From an uncultured Staphylococcaceae bacterium (GTDB lineage: Bacteria > Bacillota_I > Bacilli_A > ML615J-28 > CAG-313), in contig CAZIQF010000001.1 in NCBI GenBank assembly GCA_964541525.1, forward strand, positions 90,553 through 154,552: a stretch of 64,000 bases of DNA. Reading direction: 5' to 3'. Position numbers and translations under genes: made by a program. Positions 5,860 to 40,727 of this stretch are shown in pieces. The notes beneath the pieces are model-generated. The model did not search any database and was not told the origin of the DNA. It was given only the letters and a program-made list of their open reading frames with translations. Numbering within the stretch: position 1 is the stretch's first letter; each line of letters starts with the position of its first letter.

Positions 5860-8800
5860 TTATCTAGTATAAGCACCATGAACAATACTTGAAAATGTAG
5901 CAGTTTTACTGACACCAGTTAAGTTATTAGTAACAGTTACTGTATAACTAACTGTTGTTGTTTGATTAGGCACTTGAATAATGCGACCATTATTATCTAG
6001 AATATCGGGATTATTAGACTCCATTGTAATTGTATAATTACTCATTTGTTGTAATAATTTATATTCAGCTTCAACTAATTCCATGAATTTATGCCATAAT
6101 TCACCATTGTTTTCTAATAATGTTTGTGGGCAACCTTTACCACTAAACATATGGTGACCAGTAACTCGTGATAAATCTAAATTATGAGTCTTTAGTAAGT
6201 TTGCAACTAGTTGGGCAGTCATATGATATGTTCGCCATAGATCACTACCTTCATCACAAGCAGATTCAATACCAATTGAATTTTGATTTCCACCATAGTT
6301 AGAAATATATTTATAATCAGAATTGTAATATAATTTTGCAATATAGTAATATCCATCTACAACTTTCCATGCTGGTCCAAACCAAGTAAAGCGAGTTGAT
6401 GTATAGCCACTTGGTAAAGCAATATTTGACTTAGTACCATTAATTGTCAAGTATCCACCAGATCGATCATATACCGGTTTAGTATTTGAAGTTGCTTTAA
6501 CACCTGAATTAGTCCAACCAACATCATTGAATCCATCACCGGCATGTGCTGCTCTGACATAATCATCTAGACTTTGGAAAACACCATCATTACCAGTTGA
6601 ATAATGCCAACATGTAGTATTTCCAACTCGATAATTGTTCTTTAATGATAATGCTGTACGATGACCATTAACACCTTTTTGTGGCATACCATTATAGTGA
6701 ACTGTAATAAACTCAATTTTTGACATATTCTTTCTGCCAGTTTCAGTAAGAACTTCTTGACTTAAACGTAATGTTTGATCAGCATAGAATTCATGATTAT
6801 AGTAAATATCTGATACCGAGCAGACAACATCAGTATAATAAGCACCAAATGCAACATTTAAATTTTTAACATAATAAACTTCTGAATTATGACTTTCAGC
6901 AATAATTTTAAAGAAATCCGATTCTGATAATGGAATAATCGTTACCCCATATGAAAGATTAACCATTTCATTACCTTCAGCGTATGCAATGATTTCTGCA
7001 TAACCAGTCTTAATACCAGTAACAACGCCATTTTCATCAACTGTTGCAATATCTGGATTATTTGATTTCCATAAAATTTTAGATGAAAGTTTATATAATG
7101 TAGCTTTAAGTGTAATTGTATTTTCTGGTTCAACATAGGATACAGTTTCATAACTACCATCAATAAATGGTGCCACAAATACTTCAATTGTTAGAGTAAC
7201 ATTTAAATCTGTATTGCCTAAAACTGTGATTGTAAGTTCTGCTACTCCTTCTGCAAGACCATAAATTAAGCCTTCTTCAGTAACAGTTAACACTGATGAA
7301 TTACTTGATTTAAATAATACTCGCTTATTAGTTGCATCACTTGGTCCAAGTGTCCATATTAATTGATGTGATGTAAATTTTGCAAGTTCACTAATTTCGT
7401 TGTTGACAGTAAAACTAGTTACTGGAGTAGATGCACTCCACATTGCAGTAAGTACTAAATCACCTTTCATATCAGCAGTAATCTTTTCAACTTTATCACC
7501 AGTTTGATTATACCAACCTAAGAATGTTCGACCATCATCAATAACAAGTTCTAATAAATCGAATTCATCACCTAAATTGTATGAATCTGGAAGCGGAATT
7601 GGTTTATTCAATTCATTATATACCATTGCTTTTCGTTCATCAGTCCAATATGATGCAAAGTTACCAGAAAAGAATTCGTAGAAACGTTTATGGGCAGTCC
7701 ATGATGATGTCCAAATTGATTGGGAACCATTAATGTTATTAACTGCTGCTTCAAAACCAATTAAAACCGGCATCCATGTATCGAAATTAGCCTTTGCATG
7801 GAAGAAGTAGTTATCATCTTTAGTATTTTGATCAGCACCTTGATTATATAATTTGTAAGTGGCAACTCCACCAGAGCTCCAACTATTAAGACATGCAGTC
7901 TTGAAAGTTGCTAAACTATCACTACTTCCACTCCATTTATGAAATTCCTCCCAGAAGTAATTGATGAATTCATCAACAGTTGCTGGTTTTTGTGTTGGAA
8001 GTTGTCCTTCCTCATAGACATAAGTAATTGTGAATGTTGATTTTTCTTGCCATTGAGCATACACTGTTACATCACCAGTTTGTGATTTACTGATTTTTGT
8101 AATATATGCTGCTGAAGTTTCTGCTAATGTCCAACCTAAAAAATCATAACCTACTCGTGTTGGAATTGGTAATACTAATTCAACACCTTCGGTATAAGTA
8201 AGTGGGGCATCTTCAGTTAAACTACCACCATTTAAACGATAATTAATTTCACTATTAACAGGAATTTTTTGCCAAATAGCATATAAAGTGCAATCAGTTG
8301 TAACACTAGCTGAAATACTAGTTACATAGGTTGAACTATTCATTGATAGCTTCCAGCCTAAAAATTCACAGCCATCTTTTTCTGGATTTACAAGTTCAAC
8401 ACCAACCCCTTCAATAAAACTTGTTGGAGCATCTTCTGGTAAAACACCACCATATAAAACATAACTAATTTTATGTTCTACAATGTCTTTTTCCCATTTT
8501 GCATATAAATCAAGGTTTCCTTTACTTCCTTGAGTTATTGATGTTACAACAACACCACTAAAATCTTCATTTAAATACCATCCTAAAAAGGTATACCCAT
8601 CTTTTGTTGGATTTTTTAATTCAATCGGCAAATTATTAATGTTATACCCATTTGGATTTTGACTATTTTGAATACCTTCATCTAAATGATATGTGATTAA
8701 ATAATCCGTTTCTTCTACTTTAATATTAAATTCATATTTTTTACTTTGATCATCTAAACTAAAGGTAACTTTTAATATAAAATCACCTGCTTTTAAAGCA

Positions 8801-14725: not shown

Positions 14726-15481
14726 CTATTCGTAATCAACGACATTAGCCCAAGATAATAAGAATTCTCTTTCTTTTTCATTACCTTTAACCGATTGAGA
14801 TACTGCAACAATTGGTAACCATCTTTGAACATCTTTCTTTAAGTGATTACTCTTATCACAATATAAGTTTAAATATTTATCAGCAGTTGAAATATCACCG
14901 GCTAACCAGAATAATAGATATGTTCTAGCTGCATCAGCACATGGATTACCTTGAGTAGCATGTGACCAGTCAATGATATAAGCTTTACCATCTTTACCAA
15001 TAATAATATTTGAAGGGTTAAAGTCACCATGACATACCGATGATCCTTTAGGCATACTTTCAAGTCTTGTATGTAAGTCATATTTTGTTGTTGGTGAAAC
15101 ATTAGCAATACTAATTTTTTGAGTAAATTTATCTTTTAATTTTGTTAATAATGGACTCTTATTGCTTTGAACCATAATTTGTAATTCAACAAATTGTTCT
15201 AAATATTCATCCTTTTGTTCTGGATGTTTTTCCATTAATGCAGCAAGTGTATCACCTTCAATATATTCAGTAATAATTGCCCATTTTCCTTCAACAGTTT
15301 CAATTGATTTAATCTTTGGTACATTGATTGTTAATTCTTCAACACGTGCTTGATTTAAAGCTTCATTTAAAATATCAGCTTTTGAATAGTCTGCATTGAA
15401 TAATTTAATACAATTATCATTATCTTTATAAACAGTTTTAGCGTTTCTAATCGCAATAATTTTTTCAAGATTCATTATCAT
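14726..15481 (-). CDS. APH/choline-kinase-fold phosphotransferase (putative protein kinase)
   Basis: Brenner motif 'HGDFNPSNIII' and 'IIDWSHA' (catalytic and metal-binding Asp). 251 aa. Confidence 0.6.
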   Translation of the reverse strand: MIMNLEKIIAIRNAKTVYKDNDNCIKLFNADYSKADILNEALNQARVEELTINVPKIKSIETVEGKWAIITEYIEGDTLAALMEKHPEQKDEYLEQFVELQIMVQSNKSPLLTKLKDKFTQKISIANVSPTTKYDLHTRLESMPKGSSVCHGDFNPSNIIIGKDGKAYIIDWSHATQGNPCADAARTYLLFWLAGDISTADKYLNLYCDKSNHLKKDVQRWLPIVAVSQSVKGNEKEREFLLSWANVVDYE

Positions 15482-35432: not shown

Positions 35433-36107
35433 TTATTTTATATTCTCGTTTGCCATTTTTGCATAAATTTCTTCAGGTATCATTGGTGTTTTTAATTTTT
35501 CCATTGTCGATGATGAAATCATTCCATCCTTAATATATTCATATCCAGCTTTTTTTACTATTTCTAAGAATGGCATTGCTGGTGGAATATTAAAAAGTGG
35601 ACTCTCTGTTACTGTGATCATTGTATGATTATTGGGAAAACATAATTCAAATTGTTTTATTACTGCTTCAAAATTATTTTTTGAACTTGGAAAGCCGCAA
35701 CCACTAATCATGACATATTTAAGATGAGACTAATCACTTCTTCCAACATGATAATACTGATCATTTTCCTTAACCATTGTCATTTTCGATAGTGGCATAG
35801 TTCGATCTAATACTGCTTTTAGTATAGCAGGCATTCCATAACAATATAACGGAAAACTAAAAATTATGATATCACTTAATAAAATTTCTTCAAGAATTTC
35901 TTTCATATCATCATCTTAGATACACTCACCATTGTTGATCTTACAAGCAAAGTACCCTTTACAATAATTGATTTTTTTCTCATTAACATTGATAATTGTT
36001 TCTTCTATTGTAGTTGCTGTTTTCATTCCTTCTAAAAAGGCTTTAGTCAAGTGCAAAGTATCACTCTTATTTCCTTTAGGACTACCATTAAAAATTAATA
36101 CTTTCAT
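35433..36107 (-). pseudogene. flavodoxin-like NAD(P)H-dependent FMN reductase gene interrupted by two in-frame stop codons
   Basis: ORFs 35916..36152 ('MKVLIFNGSPKGNKSD...') and 35433..35711 are in the same frame. The segment between them translates as 'DDDMKEILEEILLSDIIIFSFPLYCYGMPAILKAVLDRT...'. The sequence shows an in-frame TAA at 35916..35918 and an in-frame TAG at 35731..35733. There are no frameshifts. Confidence 0.55.
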
Positions 36108-36248
36108 ATTTTTTCTCCTAATTAGTCTTTTTAATAATGTATTTAAACGCAACTTAAATCTACTATTTTTTTCGTATTTTGAAATGCCAAAAATCCTTTC
36201 TAAACTATCACCTGATTTAGTAAATAATATTAATTATTTAGATTAATC

Positions 36249-37094
36249 TTATGTTTGTTTTATCTTAGTAATTTCACTAAATTCAGTTAGATTTAAAATA
36301 TCAATAATATTTTCATTTGCATTAATAATCGATAGTGGCTTATTATTACATTTCTTTTTTAGTTTTAGAATTACTCTTAATCCAGCACTAGAAATGTAAT
36401 TCAACGCTTTGGCGTTAATAATGATACCATTATCTAAAATCTTTGCATTTGTAGCATGGTTTTCAAATTCATTAGCATTGTTTATATCAATACTTCCGAC
36501 TAAATTGATATAGGTAGTATTATTTTCATATGTGATATAGATTATATTTTTAGATTCCTTTTTTGCAAATACAGTTTCTACTTCTTGCTTAAGTTCTTGA
36601 TACATCTTTAAGTGGCTGAAACGACTAAACACTTGGATATACTCGTTGTATAACCATTCTTGTTTTTCTTTTCCGCGTTTAAACATACTCCAAATACTAT
36701 CTCCATCTCGGTTCATTGATTCATGAATATCAATGATGTTTGACAATTTATCGGCTAAGACTAACATTGCACAAGCATCATCACAATTTTCAAGAGCTTT
36801 TAATGTAGCATTTTTGCGTTCTTCCCAGGATAATGATTTATCTTCTGTATCAAACATTACTAAGCGATAAACTTCTTCACCAAATTCTTGTTTAATGGTT
36901 TCCGGTGTTACATTAGCATCTTCGATAGTGTCATGCAAAAAACCAGCTGCTACTAGTTCATCACTAGCTCCATTTTCAAGTAATTTTAAGCCGACTGATA
37001 CTGGATGCAAAATATAGGGAAGACCACCCTTTCTTACATCTTTTTGATGAGCAATACCAGCGAATTTTAAAGCTTTTATTTTTAAATCATTCAT
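36249..37094 (-). CDS. HD-domain (p)ppGpp-hydrolase-like (Rel/SpoT hydrolase, SAH-type) fused to C-terminal STAS domain
   Basis: 'ILHPVSV', 'AGFLHDTIED', 'VLADKLSNI' (HD hydrolase motifs). C-terminus 'LNYISSAGLRVILKL' (STAS phospho-serine motif). Confidence 0.7.
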   Translation of the reverse strand: MNDLKIKALKFAGIAHQKDVRKGGLPYILHPVSVGLKLLENGASDELVAAGFLHDTIEDANVTPETIKQEFGEEVYRLVMFDTEDKSLSWEERKNATLKALENCDDACAMLVLADKLSNIIDIHESMNRDGDSIWSMFKRGKEKQEWLYNEYIQVFSRFSHLKMYQELKQEVETVFAKKESKNIIYITYENNTTYINLVGSIDINNANEFENHATNAKILDNGIIINAKALNYISSAGLRVILKLKKKCNNKPLSIINANENIIDILNLTEFSEITKIKQT

Positions 37095-37097
37095 AAC

Positions 37098-38273
37098 TTA
37101 AAATGATAATTTATCAACCTTTGCAAGATTGTTTTCTAATAATTTAGTGTAGTATTCAATAAATTGTTTACCTTCTAAAGTATCTTCAGTATGATATACA
37201 TACACACGACGAAGAATTCGTACTGCTGATAAGATTTCAACTTTTCTTACTGCATCTTCAATTAATTCTTGATTATTATCAAAATAATCATTTAAGAATA
37301 AATGCCACATTTTAACAGTTGTATCATAAGATAAGCCATAAAAATCTAATGCATTTTGATGATTAAACATTGAATAACCGACAAAACTACAATAAACACT
37401 AACCAAATCGAAAATTGGATGACCAACTGATACTGTATCCATATCAATTAAAATTGGTTCATTATCACCAAACATAACATTATTTGTATGATAATCACCA
37501 TGGATTAATATTGGTAAAACTGGAATTTCTGTGATTAATTGTTCTAGTTTATCCCATAGATGATCACTAATTTTGCCTTTAATCACATTTAACCAACCAA
37601 TGCCCACTTTTTTGATTGATGGGAATTCATCTAAAGTAGCCTTTGTTTCATGGATTTTTTCTAAGAAATTAGAAAAAATATGCATATAATATTCTAATTT
37701 TTCTGGTTCTGCGATAATGCATTTAGTAATTGATTTAGCATTTAGTAATTCAACAACAGTTGCATAATATTCTCCCACTTTAACAATATCATAGGGAATA
37801 GCTGAGTTAATTCCTTTCATTAAGACTTTTCTACAAAGTTCACGTTCATTTTTAATCTCTTCAAGTGGCGAATGATTATAGAATACTTTAACAATTGTTT
37901 CAGCATCGTAACGATAAATTCTCCCCTTAGCTCCTTGTGCAATAACTTCACAACCATCTAAACTTAATTTTCTAAATGCTTTTTCAACTGTTAATAATTC
38001 AACAAACCCTGTCATATCAAAAATATTATAGATTTCATTAGAAACATTAATCACCTTTAATTCATCGACTGTCTTGCGTAATCTTAATAAAATTCGAAGA
38101 CCAGCACTTGAAATATATTCTAAAGCTTCAGCATCGATAATAAAAGCTTGTTCTAATGAATCATTAATAAGCTTTTTAATCTTTTCTTCGGCTTCATTAG
38201 CATTAGAAGCATCAATTCTTCCAATTAGTTCAATTACTAATAAATCATTTTCAATTCTACTTTTAATTTCCAT
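37098..38273 (-). CDS. N-terminal STAS domain fused to APH/choline-kinase-fold phosphotransferase
   Basis: 'LEYISSAGLRILLRL' STAS motif. 'IHGDYHTNNVMF' and 'LIDMDTV' kinase motifs. Confidence 0.7.
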   Translation of the reverse strand: MEIKSRIENDLLVIELIGRIDASNANEAEEKIKKLINDSLEQAFIIDAEALEYISSAGLRILLRLRKTVDELKVINVSNEIYNIFDMTGFVELLTVEKAFRKLSLDGCEVIAQGAKGRIYRYDAETIVKVFYNHSPLEEIKNERELCRKVLMKGINSAIPYDIVKVGEYYATVVELLNAKSITKCIIAEPEKLEYYMHIFSNFLEKIHETKATLDEFPSIKKVGIGWLNVIKGKISDHLWDKLEQLITEIPVLPILIHGDYHTNNVMFGDNEPILIDMDTVSVGHPIFDLVSVYCSFVGYSMFNHQNALDFYGLSYDTTVKMWHLFLNDYFDNNQELIEDAVRKVEILSAVRILRRVYVYHTEDTLEGKQFIEYYTKLLENNLAKVDKLSF

Positions 38274-38288: not shown

Positions 38289-39941
38289 TTATTTTCGCTT
38301 GATTGCAAGCATTGTAATATCATCAAATTGTGGTGTTTCATTACAAAACTCTTCAATTGATTTTTTCATATTTTTAATTAAATCAGTTGTAGAAAGATTT
38401 GAATCTTTGTTTACTACAGCTAATATTCCTTCAATTCCAAATTGAATATTTTGATTATTGATTGCTTCAGTTACACCATCTGTATAAATCAATAAAGTTT
38501 CTCCTTTTTCTAATACAAATTCATAATTTTTATATTTCATATTTGGGAAGCATCCAATTGCTAATCCATGTTTAGTTTGATAGACTTTTGCAGTTCCATC
38601 ATTTGCTTTAATTACTGGATCTTCATGTCCCGCATTCGCACAAATAACCTTACCCGTTGATAATTCTATGATGGCAAACCAAACCGTAACAAACATATCT
38701 TCTTGGTTGTTACTTGAAATCTTATTATTTAGTGCTTCTAAAATTTTAGCCGGATCATTGATTAACGTTGCAAGATTACTTGTTAAGATTTTAGTAACCA
38801 TCATAAATAATGCGGCTGGAACCCCTTTACCTGATACATCACCAATAGTTAAAGCTAAATGATCATCATCAAGCAAGTAAAAATCGAAGTAATCGCCACC
38901 TACTTCTTTAGCAGGATGCATTAAACCAAATAAGTCAATATCTTCTCGTTCGGGAAATGGCGGAAAGACACTTGGAATCATTGTCATTTGGATTTTTGTT
39001 GCAAGATTTAATTCAGTTGCAATCCTTTCTCGTTCTGCAGTTAATTTTTCTAATAAATTAGTATTATTAACAACATCATTTTCTAAATGTTGTAGTGATC
39101 GCCAGATTGAATTAAGTTCTGTAATGCTACTAACTGATTTAACATTATCTTCAAGAACAATATTACTACTTGCGAAGCGTTTAGATTCCGTAATAATCTT
39201 TTTAACTGGATTAGAGAATTGTTTAATACAATACAAAACGCCAAAAAAGACTAAAATCGCTAGATTAGCAAAGGTTGTTAAGGTATTTTTTCTTAGAAAA
39301 CTTGATAACAAGCTATTTAATTCATTCATTTCTCTTTGAACACAAGTTATTGCAACAACATTTCCATTTGAATCAAAAACCGGCGATAGTGCCGTAATAT
39401 GTGGAGGTTTACCATTTAAATCTTTAGTTCTAGTTACTACTCCGTTTTCAATCTTTTTTTCATATAAATCTTTATAAATACTAATGTATTCATCATTACT
39501 TTCACGATGATATCCTAGTTCCCATGGCGTATAACCATAAGGGTTATCATCAATAACTGTATTGAATACCGAATAGAAATTATCATAGTTTGCTTCTTGA
39601 TCAACAACAATAACATATAGAAGCGTTATTTTTTGTTTTTGGCAAACATGATTTAAATTATCTAATATTTCTAAATATTCACTATCTTGTTTATAATAAT
39701 CAACATCAGCCAAATAATCATCAAGCATATCACCATCAATAAAATCATTAGCAGTATCAGCGGCATTAATTGCATATTCATAATATGTTTTTTTCATCGC
39801 TTCATTAATTTCAACATAACCAATCACACATGCTACTGCATTAGATAAAAGTAAAATAATGACAATAAAGAAAATAAAGCGAAAGTTAATACTATTAATT
39901 AATTTCCTGAACTTTTTCATACTACCTATTCTCGCTTTCAC
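38289..39941 (-). CDS. membrane-anchored sensor PP2C phosphatase (RsbU/SpoIIE-like) with extracytoplasmic domain
   Basis: TM1, ~190-aa periplasmic/extracellular region, TM2, then 'GGDYFDFY', 'IGDVSGKGVPAA', 'YTDGVTEA'. Overlaps the upstream kinase gene by 20 nt. Confidence 0.8.
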   Translation of the reverse strand: MKARIGSMKKFRKLINSINFRFIFFIVIILLLSNAVACVIGYVEINEAMKKTYYEYAINAADTANDFIDGDMLDDYLADVDYYKQDSEYLEILDNLNHVCQKQKITLLYVIVVDQEANYDNFYSVFNTVIDDNPYGYTPWELGYHRESNDEYISIYKDLYEKKIENGVVTRTKDLNGKPPHITALSPVFDSNGNVVAITCVQREMNELNSLLSSFLRKNTLTTFANLAILVFFGVLYCIKQFSNPVKKIITESKRFASSNIVLEDNVKSVSSITELNSIWRSLQHLENDVVNNTNLLEKLTAERERIATELNLATKIQMTMIPSVFPPFPEREDIDLFGLMHPAKEVGGDYFDFYLLDDDHLALTIGDVSGKGVPAALFMMVTKILTSNLATLINDPAKILEALNNKISSNNQEDMFVTVWFAIIELSTGKVICANAGHEDPVIKANDGTAKVYQTKHGLAIGCFPNMKYKNYEFVLEKGETLLIYTDGVTEAINNQNIQFGIEGILAVVNKDSNLSTTDLIKNMKKSIEEFCNETPQFDDITMLAIKRK

Positions 39942-40356
39942 CTAAATATTTGATAATGGTTAATTTGTTTTGTTGATTATCATATTCATATTCAATATTA
40001 TCCATTAAATTTTTTACCATATAAATCCCCAATCCACCGATTTGGCGATCAGCAAGGGGAATATTAAAGTTGGGATCTTCTTTTTCGAGTGGGTTATATT
40101 GGATTCCTTGATCGATAAATATAATTTGAATATAGTGTGGATCAATATTTGTATTAACTTCAATGATGGCATCTCCTCCATCTACAGGATATGCATATTT
40201 AGCAATGTTAACAAAGATTTCTTCTACTGCTTCTTCAATGGCAAATCTTTGTTTAAATGTACAATTTGTATCATCTAAGATATTATCAATAAATGAAATT
40301 ACATCATTGAGATTATCAATTTTAGCGTCTATTTGTAATTTTTTCATGCTAATCAT
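39922..40356 (-). CDS. anti-sigma-factor-type Ser kinase (RsbW/SpoIIAB-like GHKL ATPase)
   Basis: N-box 'EEAVEEIFVNIAKYA'. G-box 'GGLGIYMVKNL'. 144 aa. Confidence 0.8.
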   Translation of the reverse strand: MISMKKLQIDAKIDNLNDVISFIDNILDDTNCTFKQRFAIEEAVEEIFVNIAKYAYPVDGGDAIIEVNTNIDPHYIQIIFIDQGIQYNPLEKEDPNFNIPLADRQIGGLGIYMVKNLMDNIEYEYDNQQNKLTIIKYLGESENR

Positions 40357-40361
40357 CCTTT

Positions 40362-40664
40362 TTATTTTATCTTTACAATATCAATAAAGCCAGTTAAATT
40401 AAATACATCAATTATTTCATCTGATGCATTAACAATCTCAAAATTGATATTTTTTGCTTTAGTTTGCTTAACAAATAACAAAATAACTCTTAATCCAGCA
40501 CTTGAAATATATTGTAAAGAAGAAAAATCAAAGATTAAGGAACTAATCTTTTCATTAAGAATTTCTCCCATTTTCGTTTCAAGTTCAATATATGATTGAG
40601 AATCAAGTCTTCCCAATAATAAAACACGTAAACTATCATTTTCTTTTTTTAATTCAATAATCAT
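40362..40664 (-). CDS. STAS-domain anti-sigma-factor antagonist (RsbV/SpoIIAA-like)
   Basis: 'LQYISSAGLRVILLF'. 100 aa. Confidence 0.8.
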   Translation of the reverse strand: MIIELKKENDSLRVLLLGRLDSQSYIELETKMGEILNEKISSLIFDFSSLQYISSAGLRVILLFVKQTKAKNINFEIVNASDEIIDVFNLTGFIDIVKIK

Positions 40665-40698: not shown

Positions 40699-40727
40699 AT
40701 TATACCAATTTTTTCTTATTTTTTCAA
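40699..40727 (-). promoter_or_regulatory. sigma-A-type promoter for the partner-switching operon
   Basis: Minus strand TTGAAA-17 nt-TATAAT with TGg extended -10. Lies ~35 nt upstream of the rsbV-like start. Confidence 0.4.

Follow-up and report, generated by a model that had tools for sequence, protein, structure and literature searches.

An alarmone-hydrolase-type HD domain fused to a STAS domain within a five-gene partner-switch operon of an uncultured Staphylococcaceae bacterium

Results

Organization of the SAH-STAS operon

We analyzed a 64,000-nucleotide stretch of DNA (the window; G+C content 29.5%) from an uncultured Staphylococcaceae bacterium (assembly GCA_964541525.1, contig CAZIQF010000001.1, positions 90,553 to 154,552), with attention to a gene for a 281-aa protein that joins a small alarmone hydrolase (SAH)-type HD domain to a STAS domain. 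The gene, called SAH-STAS here, has an unbroken reading frame from ATG to stop whose ends are exactly 36249..37094 of the minus strand. It is the final gene of an operon of five packed minus-strand genes in the order STAS, RsbW-like serine kinase, membrane PP2C phosphatase, STAS-APH-like kinase and SAH-STAS, with intergenic gaps of 5, -20, 15 and 3 nt. All positions below are those of the window unless a locus is named, and all of its genes described here, like the promoter-like site, lie on its minus strand.

The first gene (40362..40664) encodes a stand-alone STAS protein of 100 aa (Pfam STAS, E 2.4e-15) with the sequence YISSAGLRV. The second (39922..40356) encodes a 144-aa GHKL serine kinase of the RsbW/SpoIIAB type (Pfam HATPase_c_2, E 1e-20), and its alignment to B. 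subtilis RsbW (6m36_A) revealed a conserved N-box Asn, DxG and GGLG. The third (38289..39941) encodes a 550-aa phosphatase of the SpoIIE/RsbU-type PP2C family (Pfam SpoIIE, E 3.7e-51), in which hydropathy analysis placed an extracytoplasmic region of about 175 aa between two hydrophobic segments (about aa 20-42 and 220-242). The fourth (37098..38273) encodes a 391-aa protein with a STAS and an APH domain (Pfam STAS and APH; TIGR02172-like, E 1e-28), and its stop codon is located 3 nt upstream of the SAH-STAS start. A promoter-like site, TTGAAA-17-TATAAT with an extended -10 TG, was recognized by consensus match at 40699..40727, about 35 nt upstream of the first gene; with 11 of 12 matches it is the best sigma-70-like site of the region.

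The motif YISSAGLR is identical in all three STAS domains of the operon. The original prediction had proposed, from the fusion itself, that alarmone hydrolysis is placed under partner-switch or phosphorylation control; the presence of an RsbW-like kinase, a PP2C phosphatase and two further STAS domains with this motif in the same operon strengthened the proposal. The prediction was correct about the hydrolase-STAS fusion and well founded in its partner-switch idea, and it overlooked the conserved partnership with the APH-like kinase. We scanned the operon and 20 flanking or candidate-sized open reading frames (ORFs) of the window, and among these there was no sigma factor gene, no alarmone synthetase gene and no defence gene; a PADLOC search of the five operon proteins produced no match.

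The N-terminal domain is of the RSH hydrolase type

The hydrolase domain, of the RelA/SpoT homologue (RSH) type, comprises aa 1-178 (36561..37094) and was delimited by matches to structures in the Protein Data Bank (PDB), by Foldseek and by an invariant catalytic set. Pfam HD_4 matched aa 8-124 of the protein (E 4e-13) and NCBIfam TIGR00691 (spoT_relA) also matched it (E 2.6e-22). Against PDB sequences, the N-terminal part matched Lmo0812 of Listeria, its nearest solved relative (E 3e-29), MESH1 (E 9e-16), the SAHs 7qoe (Leptospira) and 7qoc (Corynebacterium), and the hydrolase halves of Rel/SpoT proteins. Identity is about 32-35% to the bacterial RelH and Lmo0812 structures and about 21-27% to metazoan Mesh1. 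Foldseek searches with residues ~1-180 of the AlphaFold2 (AF2) model described below recovered RelH_Cg (TMt 0.84-0.86, root-mean-square deviation 1.6-2.1 A), Lmo0812 (0.91) and MESH1, with a probability of 1.00. The agreement of HD_4, spoT_relA, the PDB matches and the fold superposition upholds the predicted SAH-like HD domain, and the domain assignments of the protein as a whole are far beyond chance.

We located the sequences on which the prediction was based at aa 54-59 (HDTIED), 113-120 (LADKLSNI) and 235-241 (SSAGLRV). In a HMMER alignment to human MESH1 (3nr1), R21, H30, H54-D55, E58-D59, D115 and N119 occupy the catalytic positions, so that the complete His/Asp constellation is present; the MESH1 counterparts are R24, H35, H61-D62, E65-D66, D122 and N126. 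The H54/D55 codons are at 36930-36935 and those of E58/D59 at 36918-36923. These eight residues (R21, H30, H54, D55, E58, D59, D115, N119) did not vary among 8 HD-STAS-containing proteins, nor in a larger set of 41. The full invariant set is H16, R21, K22, Y27, H30, H54, D55, E58, D59, D115, K116 and N119; this 12-residue pattern was kept in 37 of 37 complete HD domains of the related loci, and the few others differ conservatively. Judged from its residues, the domain appears to be active and to resemble (p)ppGpp hydrolases.

The SAHs of C. glutamicum (RelH, 7QOC/7QOD), L. levettii (RelH, 7QOE) and L. monocytogenes (Lmo0812, 4YF1) and MESH1 share this fold and these catalytic residues and, like SAH-STAS, have no synthetase domain. 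They are single-domain proteins, whereas the window protein adds a C-terminal STAS domain and a partner-switch operon. Because of the STAS domain at aa 183-281, SAH-STAS is not a classical SAH but a SAH-type catalytic domain in a new architecture. The closest biochemically characterized relatives of the HD domain, RelH_Cg and Tde-SAH, hydrolyse (pp)pGpp (PMC10434055). Since the closest characterized SAHs hydrolyse (pp)pGpp or (p)ppApp, these are our default guess for the substrate.

The C-terminal domain is a STAS domain with an intact phospho-acceptor motif

The STAS domain (aa 183-281; 36252..36548) was defined by Pfam STAS, by the secondary structure of the AF2 model and by superposition on RsbV and SpoIIAA. 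The Pfam match covers aa 191-281 (E 2e-11), the STAS-type profile matches together span aa 188-281, and the NCBIfam anti-sigma antagonist family matched with E 5.6e-13. The STAS proteins 1sbo and 4hyl were matched by the C-terminal part among PDB sequences. The SAH HD domain and the SpoIIAA/RsbV-type STAS domain are separated by about 8 residues.

An AF2 model of SAH-STAS, built on an alignment of 41 sequences, had a mean predicted local distance difference test (pLDDT) score of 88.6. The STAS part of the model has the order beta-beta-alpha-beta-alpha-beta-alpha-beta, and in Foldseek searches its C-terminal ~100 residues recovered RsbV (TMt 0.80) and SpoIIAA (0.76), which together with the Pfam match establishes a STAS fold at the C-terminus. 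The claim of a phosphorylatable SSAGLRV motif also held: Ser236 (codon 36387-36389), the putative phospho-acceptor of the YISSAGLR motif, is located at the first turn of helix alpha2 (residues 236-248) in the model. By motif alignment, we take this position to be that of the SpoIIAA/RsbV phospho-serine, equal to SpoIIAA Ser58. The YISSAGLR motif is invariant among the aligned relatives of the fused STAS domain. The codon at 36282-36284 specifies Glu (E271), in a position that is usually the Gly of a TGF motif.

The exact SAH-STAS protein is also encoded on 5 other public contigs, and its orthologues share the architecture; the fusion is therefore not an assembly artefact.

The STAS-APH-like partner kinase

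The product of the gene immediately upstream combines its own STAS domain with an APH-like domain. The STAS serines S55-S56 are invariant in the aligned STAS-APH proteins, and the glycine-rich loop, K129, E143, the HGD loop (H258-G259-D260), N265 and D277 of the APH-like domain are kept in all 37-40 aligned sequences. The AF2 model of the protein had a pLDDT of 88.9 and a predicted TM-score (pTM) of 0.80. Its nearest fold neighbours are the APH(2''), APH(3'), methylthioribose (MTR), capreomycin and amicoumacin kinases (TM 0.45-0.6, 13-16% identity), and its sequence gave weak matches to CotS/YtaA and to fructosamine kinases. The APH-like domain resembles small-molecule kinases only distantly.

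Relatives of SAH-STAS and the conserved gene set

The two-domain SAH-STAS architecture is rare. A word-indexed search that covered 5.8 billion clusters recovered four genuine two-domain 90% clusters, namely the window's own, P0001, P0002 and P0003; P0005 is a truncated variant, and P0006, P0007 and P0008 are pieces of longer proteins. When 1.84 billion 50% representatives were searched exhaustively with HMMER, one two-domain cluster (P0003) and three longer HD-STAS-APH clusters (P0135, P0254, P0375) were recovered. Two-domain orthologues with 70-75% identity and the same architecture occur in three further lineages, and the nearest genomes that carry them are metagenome-assembled genomes (MAGs) labelled uncultured Coprobacillus and Anaeroplasma. 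The five-gene operon is shared by all four two-domain lineages; outside the window it is found with differing flanks in L001/L006 (Coprobacillus MAG), L004 and L007 (Anaeroplasma MAG). At L007 the free STAS gene upstream of the RsbW-like gene is missing (6622-6759): 137 nt separate the RsbW-like gene from a glycoside hydrolase gene, and both STAS domains of the operon are fused to enzymes.

Triple fusions of the SAH-STAS-APH type (about 575 aa), found via the fragment P0022, form at least 44 90%-clusters, some with more than 1000 members, and carry the NCBI name 'anti-sigma factor antagonist'. They are 48-54% identical to the window protein across the HD-STAS part and usually lie beside PP2C genes, often PP2C-RsbW fusions with a free STAS gene; some stand alone. 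STAS-APH proteins of about 391 aa were found in thousands.

We annotated 97 fetched loci with hidden Markov models (HMMs) of our own. The 80 metagenome loci among them were picked by STAS motifs and query similarity; their STAS content is thus built in by the selection, and what they inform on is solely the adjacency pattern and the PP2C/RsbW content. In gut and rumen metagenomes the usual gene set-up is STAS / PP2C(-RsbW) / SAH (about 190 aa) / STAS-APH, the SAH and STAS-APH genes overlapping or lying a few nt apart; these two genes are adjacent or overlap in more than 20 distinct loci. Because the metagenome loci were picked through STAS motifs, we also chose stand-alone SAHs by HD similarity alone (46-56% identity; P0021/P0185, P0033 and P0039), and all three of the resulting contexts were operons with SAH, STAS, PP2C(-RsbW), RsbW and STAS-APH. 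Members of the set are fused to one another in at least four combinations, including SAH-STAS-APH, PP2C-RsbW and STAS-APH-RsbW. SAH, STAS, PP2C, RsbW-like kinase and STAS-APH are a conserved gene set.

Several variations on this set were recorded. STAS-APH-RsbW fusions of about 520-550 aa occur at L044, L054, L056, L067, L070 and L074. An HD-APH protein at L030 (7196-8245), encoded opposite a cluster of STAS-APH / PP2C / RsbW, has no STAS domain by our HMMs, and its gene is truncated at the edge of the contig. In many relatives the phosphatase is fused to the RsbW-like kinase (L012:4991-7456, L103:6896-9055, L014:5845-7977), often after a 5TM-5TMR_LYT membrane sensor; in the window the two are separate genes, and the N-terminal region of the phosphatase is different, with no Pfam match. 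In two SAH partner-switch operons that are unrelated to each other, STAS-APH is followed by a gene for an alpha/beta-hydrolase, directly in L103 (10306-11247) and after a 207-aa ORF with no Pfam match in L101 (10363-11983); the window operon has no such gene. Neighbouring genes for a nucleoside phosphorylase (PNP_UDP_1), for cation efflux and for an LPG synthase were not conserved across loci and were dropped as module members.

Origin and strain polymorphism of the two-domain form

The HD domain of the window protein is 62% identical to that of the triple fusion P0163, compared with 46-48% for SAHs encoded ahead of a free STAS gene. The STAS domain of the window protein aligned with the top score to STAS domains of the triple-fusion and STAS-APH type, the STAS of P0163 being its best match, and it has a KK[KR]C motif and a gap pattern in common with this type; the support from the STAS side consists of this score and the KK[KR]C/indel pattern, as the pairwise STAS identities of 33-45% do not by themselves settle the origin of the fused STAS. 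Both domains have their nearest counterparts in the triple fusions. The two-domain form therefore probably arose when a SAH-STAS-APH protein lost its APH domain while a paralogous STAS-APH gene was kept upstream. The HD-STAS variant P0005 (288 aa; L003:153-587, 869-1735) adjoins the same Fe-alcohol-dehydrogenase gene as P0163 (L016:2410-5355) and has an integrase-core fragment as a further neighbour; it has the appearance of a P0163-type triple fusion that was truncated independently.

The junction of the two domains carries an A6 homopolymer in codons 177-179 (36559..36564; T6 on the plus strand). A DNA alignment identified alleles with one A fewer (A5), in which translation stops after ...AKRNLKI to give a 183-aa protein without the STAS domain. 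Within the same 90% cluster, three 183-aa alleles are found on 4 contigs versus the full-length gene on 5 contigs. The downstream STAS coding sequence is intact in the A5 strains (L098:3455-3900; L099:683-1130), and its reading frame retains the canonical TGF motif. The A6/A5 difference may reflect slipped-strand switching that couples the hydrolase to its regulation or frees it, a recent frameshift, or relaxed selection on STAS.

Other features of the window

A flavodoxin/NADPH-FMN-reductase-like gene directly downstream of the operon (35433-36152) is split into ORFs of 78, 58 and 92 aa. It is likewise split in L100 and is an intact 161-aa gene in strain L098; the gene is probably a pseudogene in the window haplotype. 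The window also encodes a second, stand-alone APH-fold kinase of 251 aa (14726-15481) that lacks a STAS domain and is not linked to the SAH-STAS operon; it matched Pfam APH with E 6e-15 and, more weakly, RIO1 and TCAD9. A terminator-like hairpin at 36401-36418 was disregarded, as it lies inside the coding region and such hairpins are at chance expectation.

Discussion

We propose that SAH-STAS is a direct client of the partner-switch encoded beside it and that the output of the module is of the enzyme type, a reading that we hold to be somewhat better than an even bet. The protein would be an Mn2+-type hydrolase of the RelA/SpoT family that carries its own anti-sigma-antagonist (STAS) domain. 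We infer that the RsbW-like kinase would phosphorylate Ser236 of SAH-STAS, Ser56 of STAS-APH and the corresponding residue in the stand-alone STAS protein, and that the membrane PP2C phosphatase, through its extracytoplasmic sensor region, would strip the phosphate on sensing its signal. The phosphorylation state of the STAS domain, or the binding of the RsbW-like kinase to unphosphorylated STAS, or both, would toggle the hydrolase on or off, with the co-transcribed STAS-APH-like kinase toggled in parallel. The result would be an enzymatic activity and not the release of a sigma factor: the hydrolase may cleave the 3'-pyrophosphate from (p)ppGpp or (p)ppApp, or its substrate may be a related nucleotide with a phosphorylated ribose. 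What the sequences establish is the identity of the domains, the intact catalytic and phospho-acceptor residues, the layout of the operon, and the conservation and recurrent fusion of its components; which protein phosphorylates which, the sign of the regulation and the substrate are predictions. A precedent is All4160, a STAS-glycosyltransferase that is controlled by a PP2C phosphatase and kinases via the STAS serine (bioRxiv 10.64898/2026.04.08.717354).

Several observations weigh against this proposal. The original prediction had asked whether the STAS domain packs against the HD active site, and the structure prediction gave no positive answer: the AF2 model (pTM 0.63) has no confident HD/STAS interface and a flexible linker (residues 179-181, pLDDT below 50), so that an allosteric route is not visible in it. 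Most of the related systems have a SAH without a fused STAS domain, so the working of the module does not depend on such a fusion. The RsbW-like gene is missing near some triple fusions (L009, L016). SAH-family enzymes are promiscuous, with (p)ppApp, NADPH and CoA given as examples in PMC10434055 and other papers, which leaves (p)ppGpp as only a default guess for the substrate. The A6-to-A5 frameshift, and with it the loss of the STAS domain, is seen in about half of this species' assemblies, and in the window allele E271 stands in place of the TGF Gly that nearly all of the 41 relatives have. The STAS domain may thus be dispensable or decaying here, and the frameshift polymorphism makes us less confident that this species needs the fused STAS.

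One rival idea is that the fused STAS is a functionless remnant, in which case the protein would be a constitutive SAH left by truncation of a SAH-STAS-APH protein and now decaying in the lineage. The STAS-less frameshift alleles (4 contigs, with 5 full-length), the G271E change in the TGF motif and the resemblance of P0005 to a similar truncation of a P0163-type fusion beside the same Fe-alcohol-dehydrogenase gene are all in line with it. We nevertheless consider a remnant very improbable: STAS with an invariant YISSAGLR has been kept across four lineages at 70-75% overall identity, the STAS sequence of the frameshift strains is intact with a canonical TGF, which points to slippage that is recent or reversible more than to prolonged decay, and the Anaeroplasma operon has lost its free STAS and kept the fused one. 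Another rival is a scheme in which the HD domain is the input; it would bind or turn over an alarmone and report to STAS as in RsbR/YtvA, and the real output would be the APH-like kinase. An HD domain at the N-terminus followed by STAS matches the layout of sensor-STAS proteins, whereas STAS-APH and All4160, whose output is enzymatic, begin with STAS; the triple fusions are ordered HD-STAS-APH. Set against this, the invariance of the catalytic Glu-Asp pair and of all metal ligands goes beyond binding residues, the SAH is separate and STAS-free in most systems, and stressosome-type RsbS/RsbT partners are not present, which leaves the scheme distinctly improbable in our judgement.

The repeated association of the hydrolase with the APH-like kinase calls to mind two enzymes that work against each other on a single phosphorylated compound, a small molecule or nucleotide other than (p)ppGpp, with the kinase adding a phosphate, the HD domain removing it and the STAS domains letting the partner-switch set the balance, much as the two halves of Rel do. 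We regard such a pair as unlikely, though it is the rival that we take most seriously. The adjacency or overlap of SAH and STAS-APH genes in more than 20 loci, their fusion in at least 44 clusters, the invariant catalytic residues of the kinase and its nearest fold neighbours, the sugar-hydroxyl kinases APH(2''), APH(3') and MTR kinase, are consistent with it; MESH1 reportedly removes single 2'/3' ribose phosphates from NADPH and CoA, and its complex with PAPS has been solved (9chy). Fusion, on the other hand, implies joint work and not opposition, the nearest characterized HD relatives (RelH_Cg, Tde-SAH) hydrolyse (pp)pGpp, a substrate is not deducible from structural matches as weak as TM 0.45-0.6 and ~15% identity, and a SAH occurs with a partner-switch and no APH in L035, L039 and L080. 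A bolder form of the same thought, which we rate as quite unlikely, is that the five-part set might be an undescribed second-messenger system in which the APH-fold kinase makes, and the RSH-type hydrolase destroys, a ribose-phosphorylated nucleotide or metabolite that is not (p)ppGpp, the partner-switch balances the two, and the junction homopolymer uncouples the hydrolase by slipped-strand frameshifting. Lastly, SAHs neutralise toxic small alarmone synthetases (toxSAS), and Coprobacillus carries the toxSAS FaRel2 (PMC7229694), so the protein might be an antitoxin or counter-defence enzyme like the PbcSpo-type SAHs. With no small alarmone synthetase (SAS) gene in the operon or among the window ORFs scanned, no PADLOC match for any of the five operon proteins, and signalling proteins instead of toxins as conserved neighbours, we find this scarcely credible and rejected the toxin-antitoxin or anti-phage reading.

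The partner-switch reading is best placed by comparison with known systems. SpoIIAA-SpoIIAB-SpoIIE and RsbV-RsbW-RsbU likewise have a STAS serine at the start of helix alpha2, a GHKL serine kinase and a PP2C phosphatase encoded together. The window operon differs from them in having no sigma factor, in having three STAS domains of which two are fused to enzymes, and in having a membrane-anchored phosphatase with an extracytoplasmic region. Partner-switches that control c-di-GMP synthesis are known in Pseudomonas (HsbR/HsbA/HsbD, SiaABCD), where a STAS-like protein binds a separate diguanylate cyclase. The likeness is an output in the turnover of a nucleotide second messenger; in the window the hydrolase bears the STAS domain itself, and the nucleotide would be an alarmone. 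Anabaena All4160, with the HenR phosphatase and the Alr3423 kinase, is also a STAS-enzyme fusion in which phosphorylation of the STAS serine governs an enzyme and not a sigma factor, but its enzyme class and phylum are different, its STAS domain is N-terminal, and it is not part of a single operon with two STAS-enzymes. The SAH-STAS operon has two STAS domains covalently fused to catalytic domains, together with a dedicated phosphatase and kinase.

Among its own relatives, the SAH-STAS-APH fusions (e.g. P0144, P0163) and the TIGR02172-like STAS-APH proteins have the same motifs and are often near PP2C/RsbW genes; unlike the triple fusions, the window protein has no APH domain and a separate STAS-APH gene lies immediately upstream. 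An alarmone catalytic domain under a fused regulatory domain is likewise found in the long RSH proteins (Rel/SpoT) and in the SAS-TPR protein of T. denticola, in which the TPR acts as a brake (PMC10434055). In the window protein the regulator is a phosphorylatable STAS domain tied to a kinase/phosphatase pair instead of TGS/ACT or TPR. A search of the literature library at hand, in which matches to the word STAS in alarmone papers were judged by title and abstract, found no paper on a SAH-STAS protein, a SAH in a partner-switch operon or the STAS-APH family, and the databases give such proteins generic names ('HD domain-containing protein', 'anti-sigma factor antagonist'). Each half of the protein comes from a well-known family, and there are precedents for partner-switches whose output is not a sigma factor; the combination is undescribed.

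To our knowledge, the regulation of stand-alone alarmone hydrolases is largely unknown, and they are usually treated as constitutive enzymes or antitoxins. Here such a hydrolase is hard-wired, through its operon and through recurrent gene fusion, to a serine kinase/phosphatase switch that has its sensor in the membrane, which predicts post-translational, signal-dependent breakdown of an alarmone or a related nucleotide in gut and rumen Firmicutes. The STAS-APH kinase family, whose thousands of unannotated members mostly bear the name 'anti-sigma factor antagonist', gains a concrete functional partner, and a widespread, uncharacterized five-component module is exposed. If the proposal is true, partner-switching would extend from sigma factors to the direct control of two enzymes at once.

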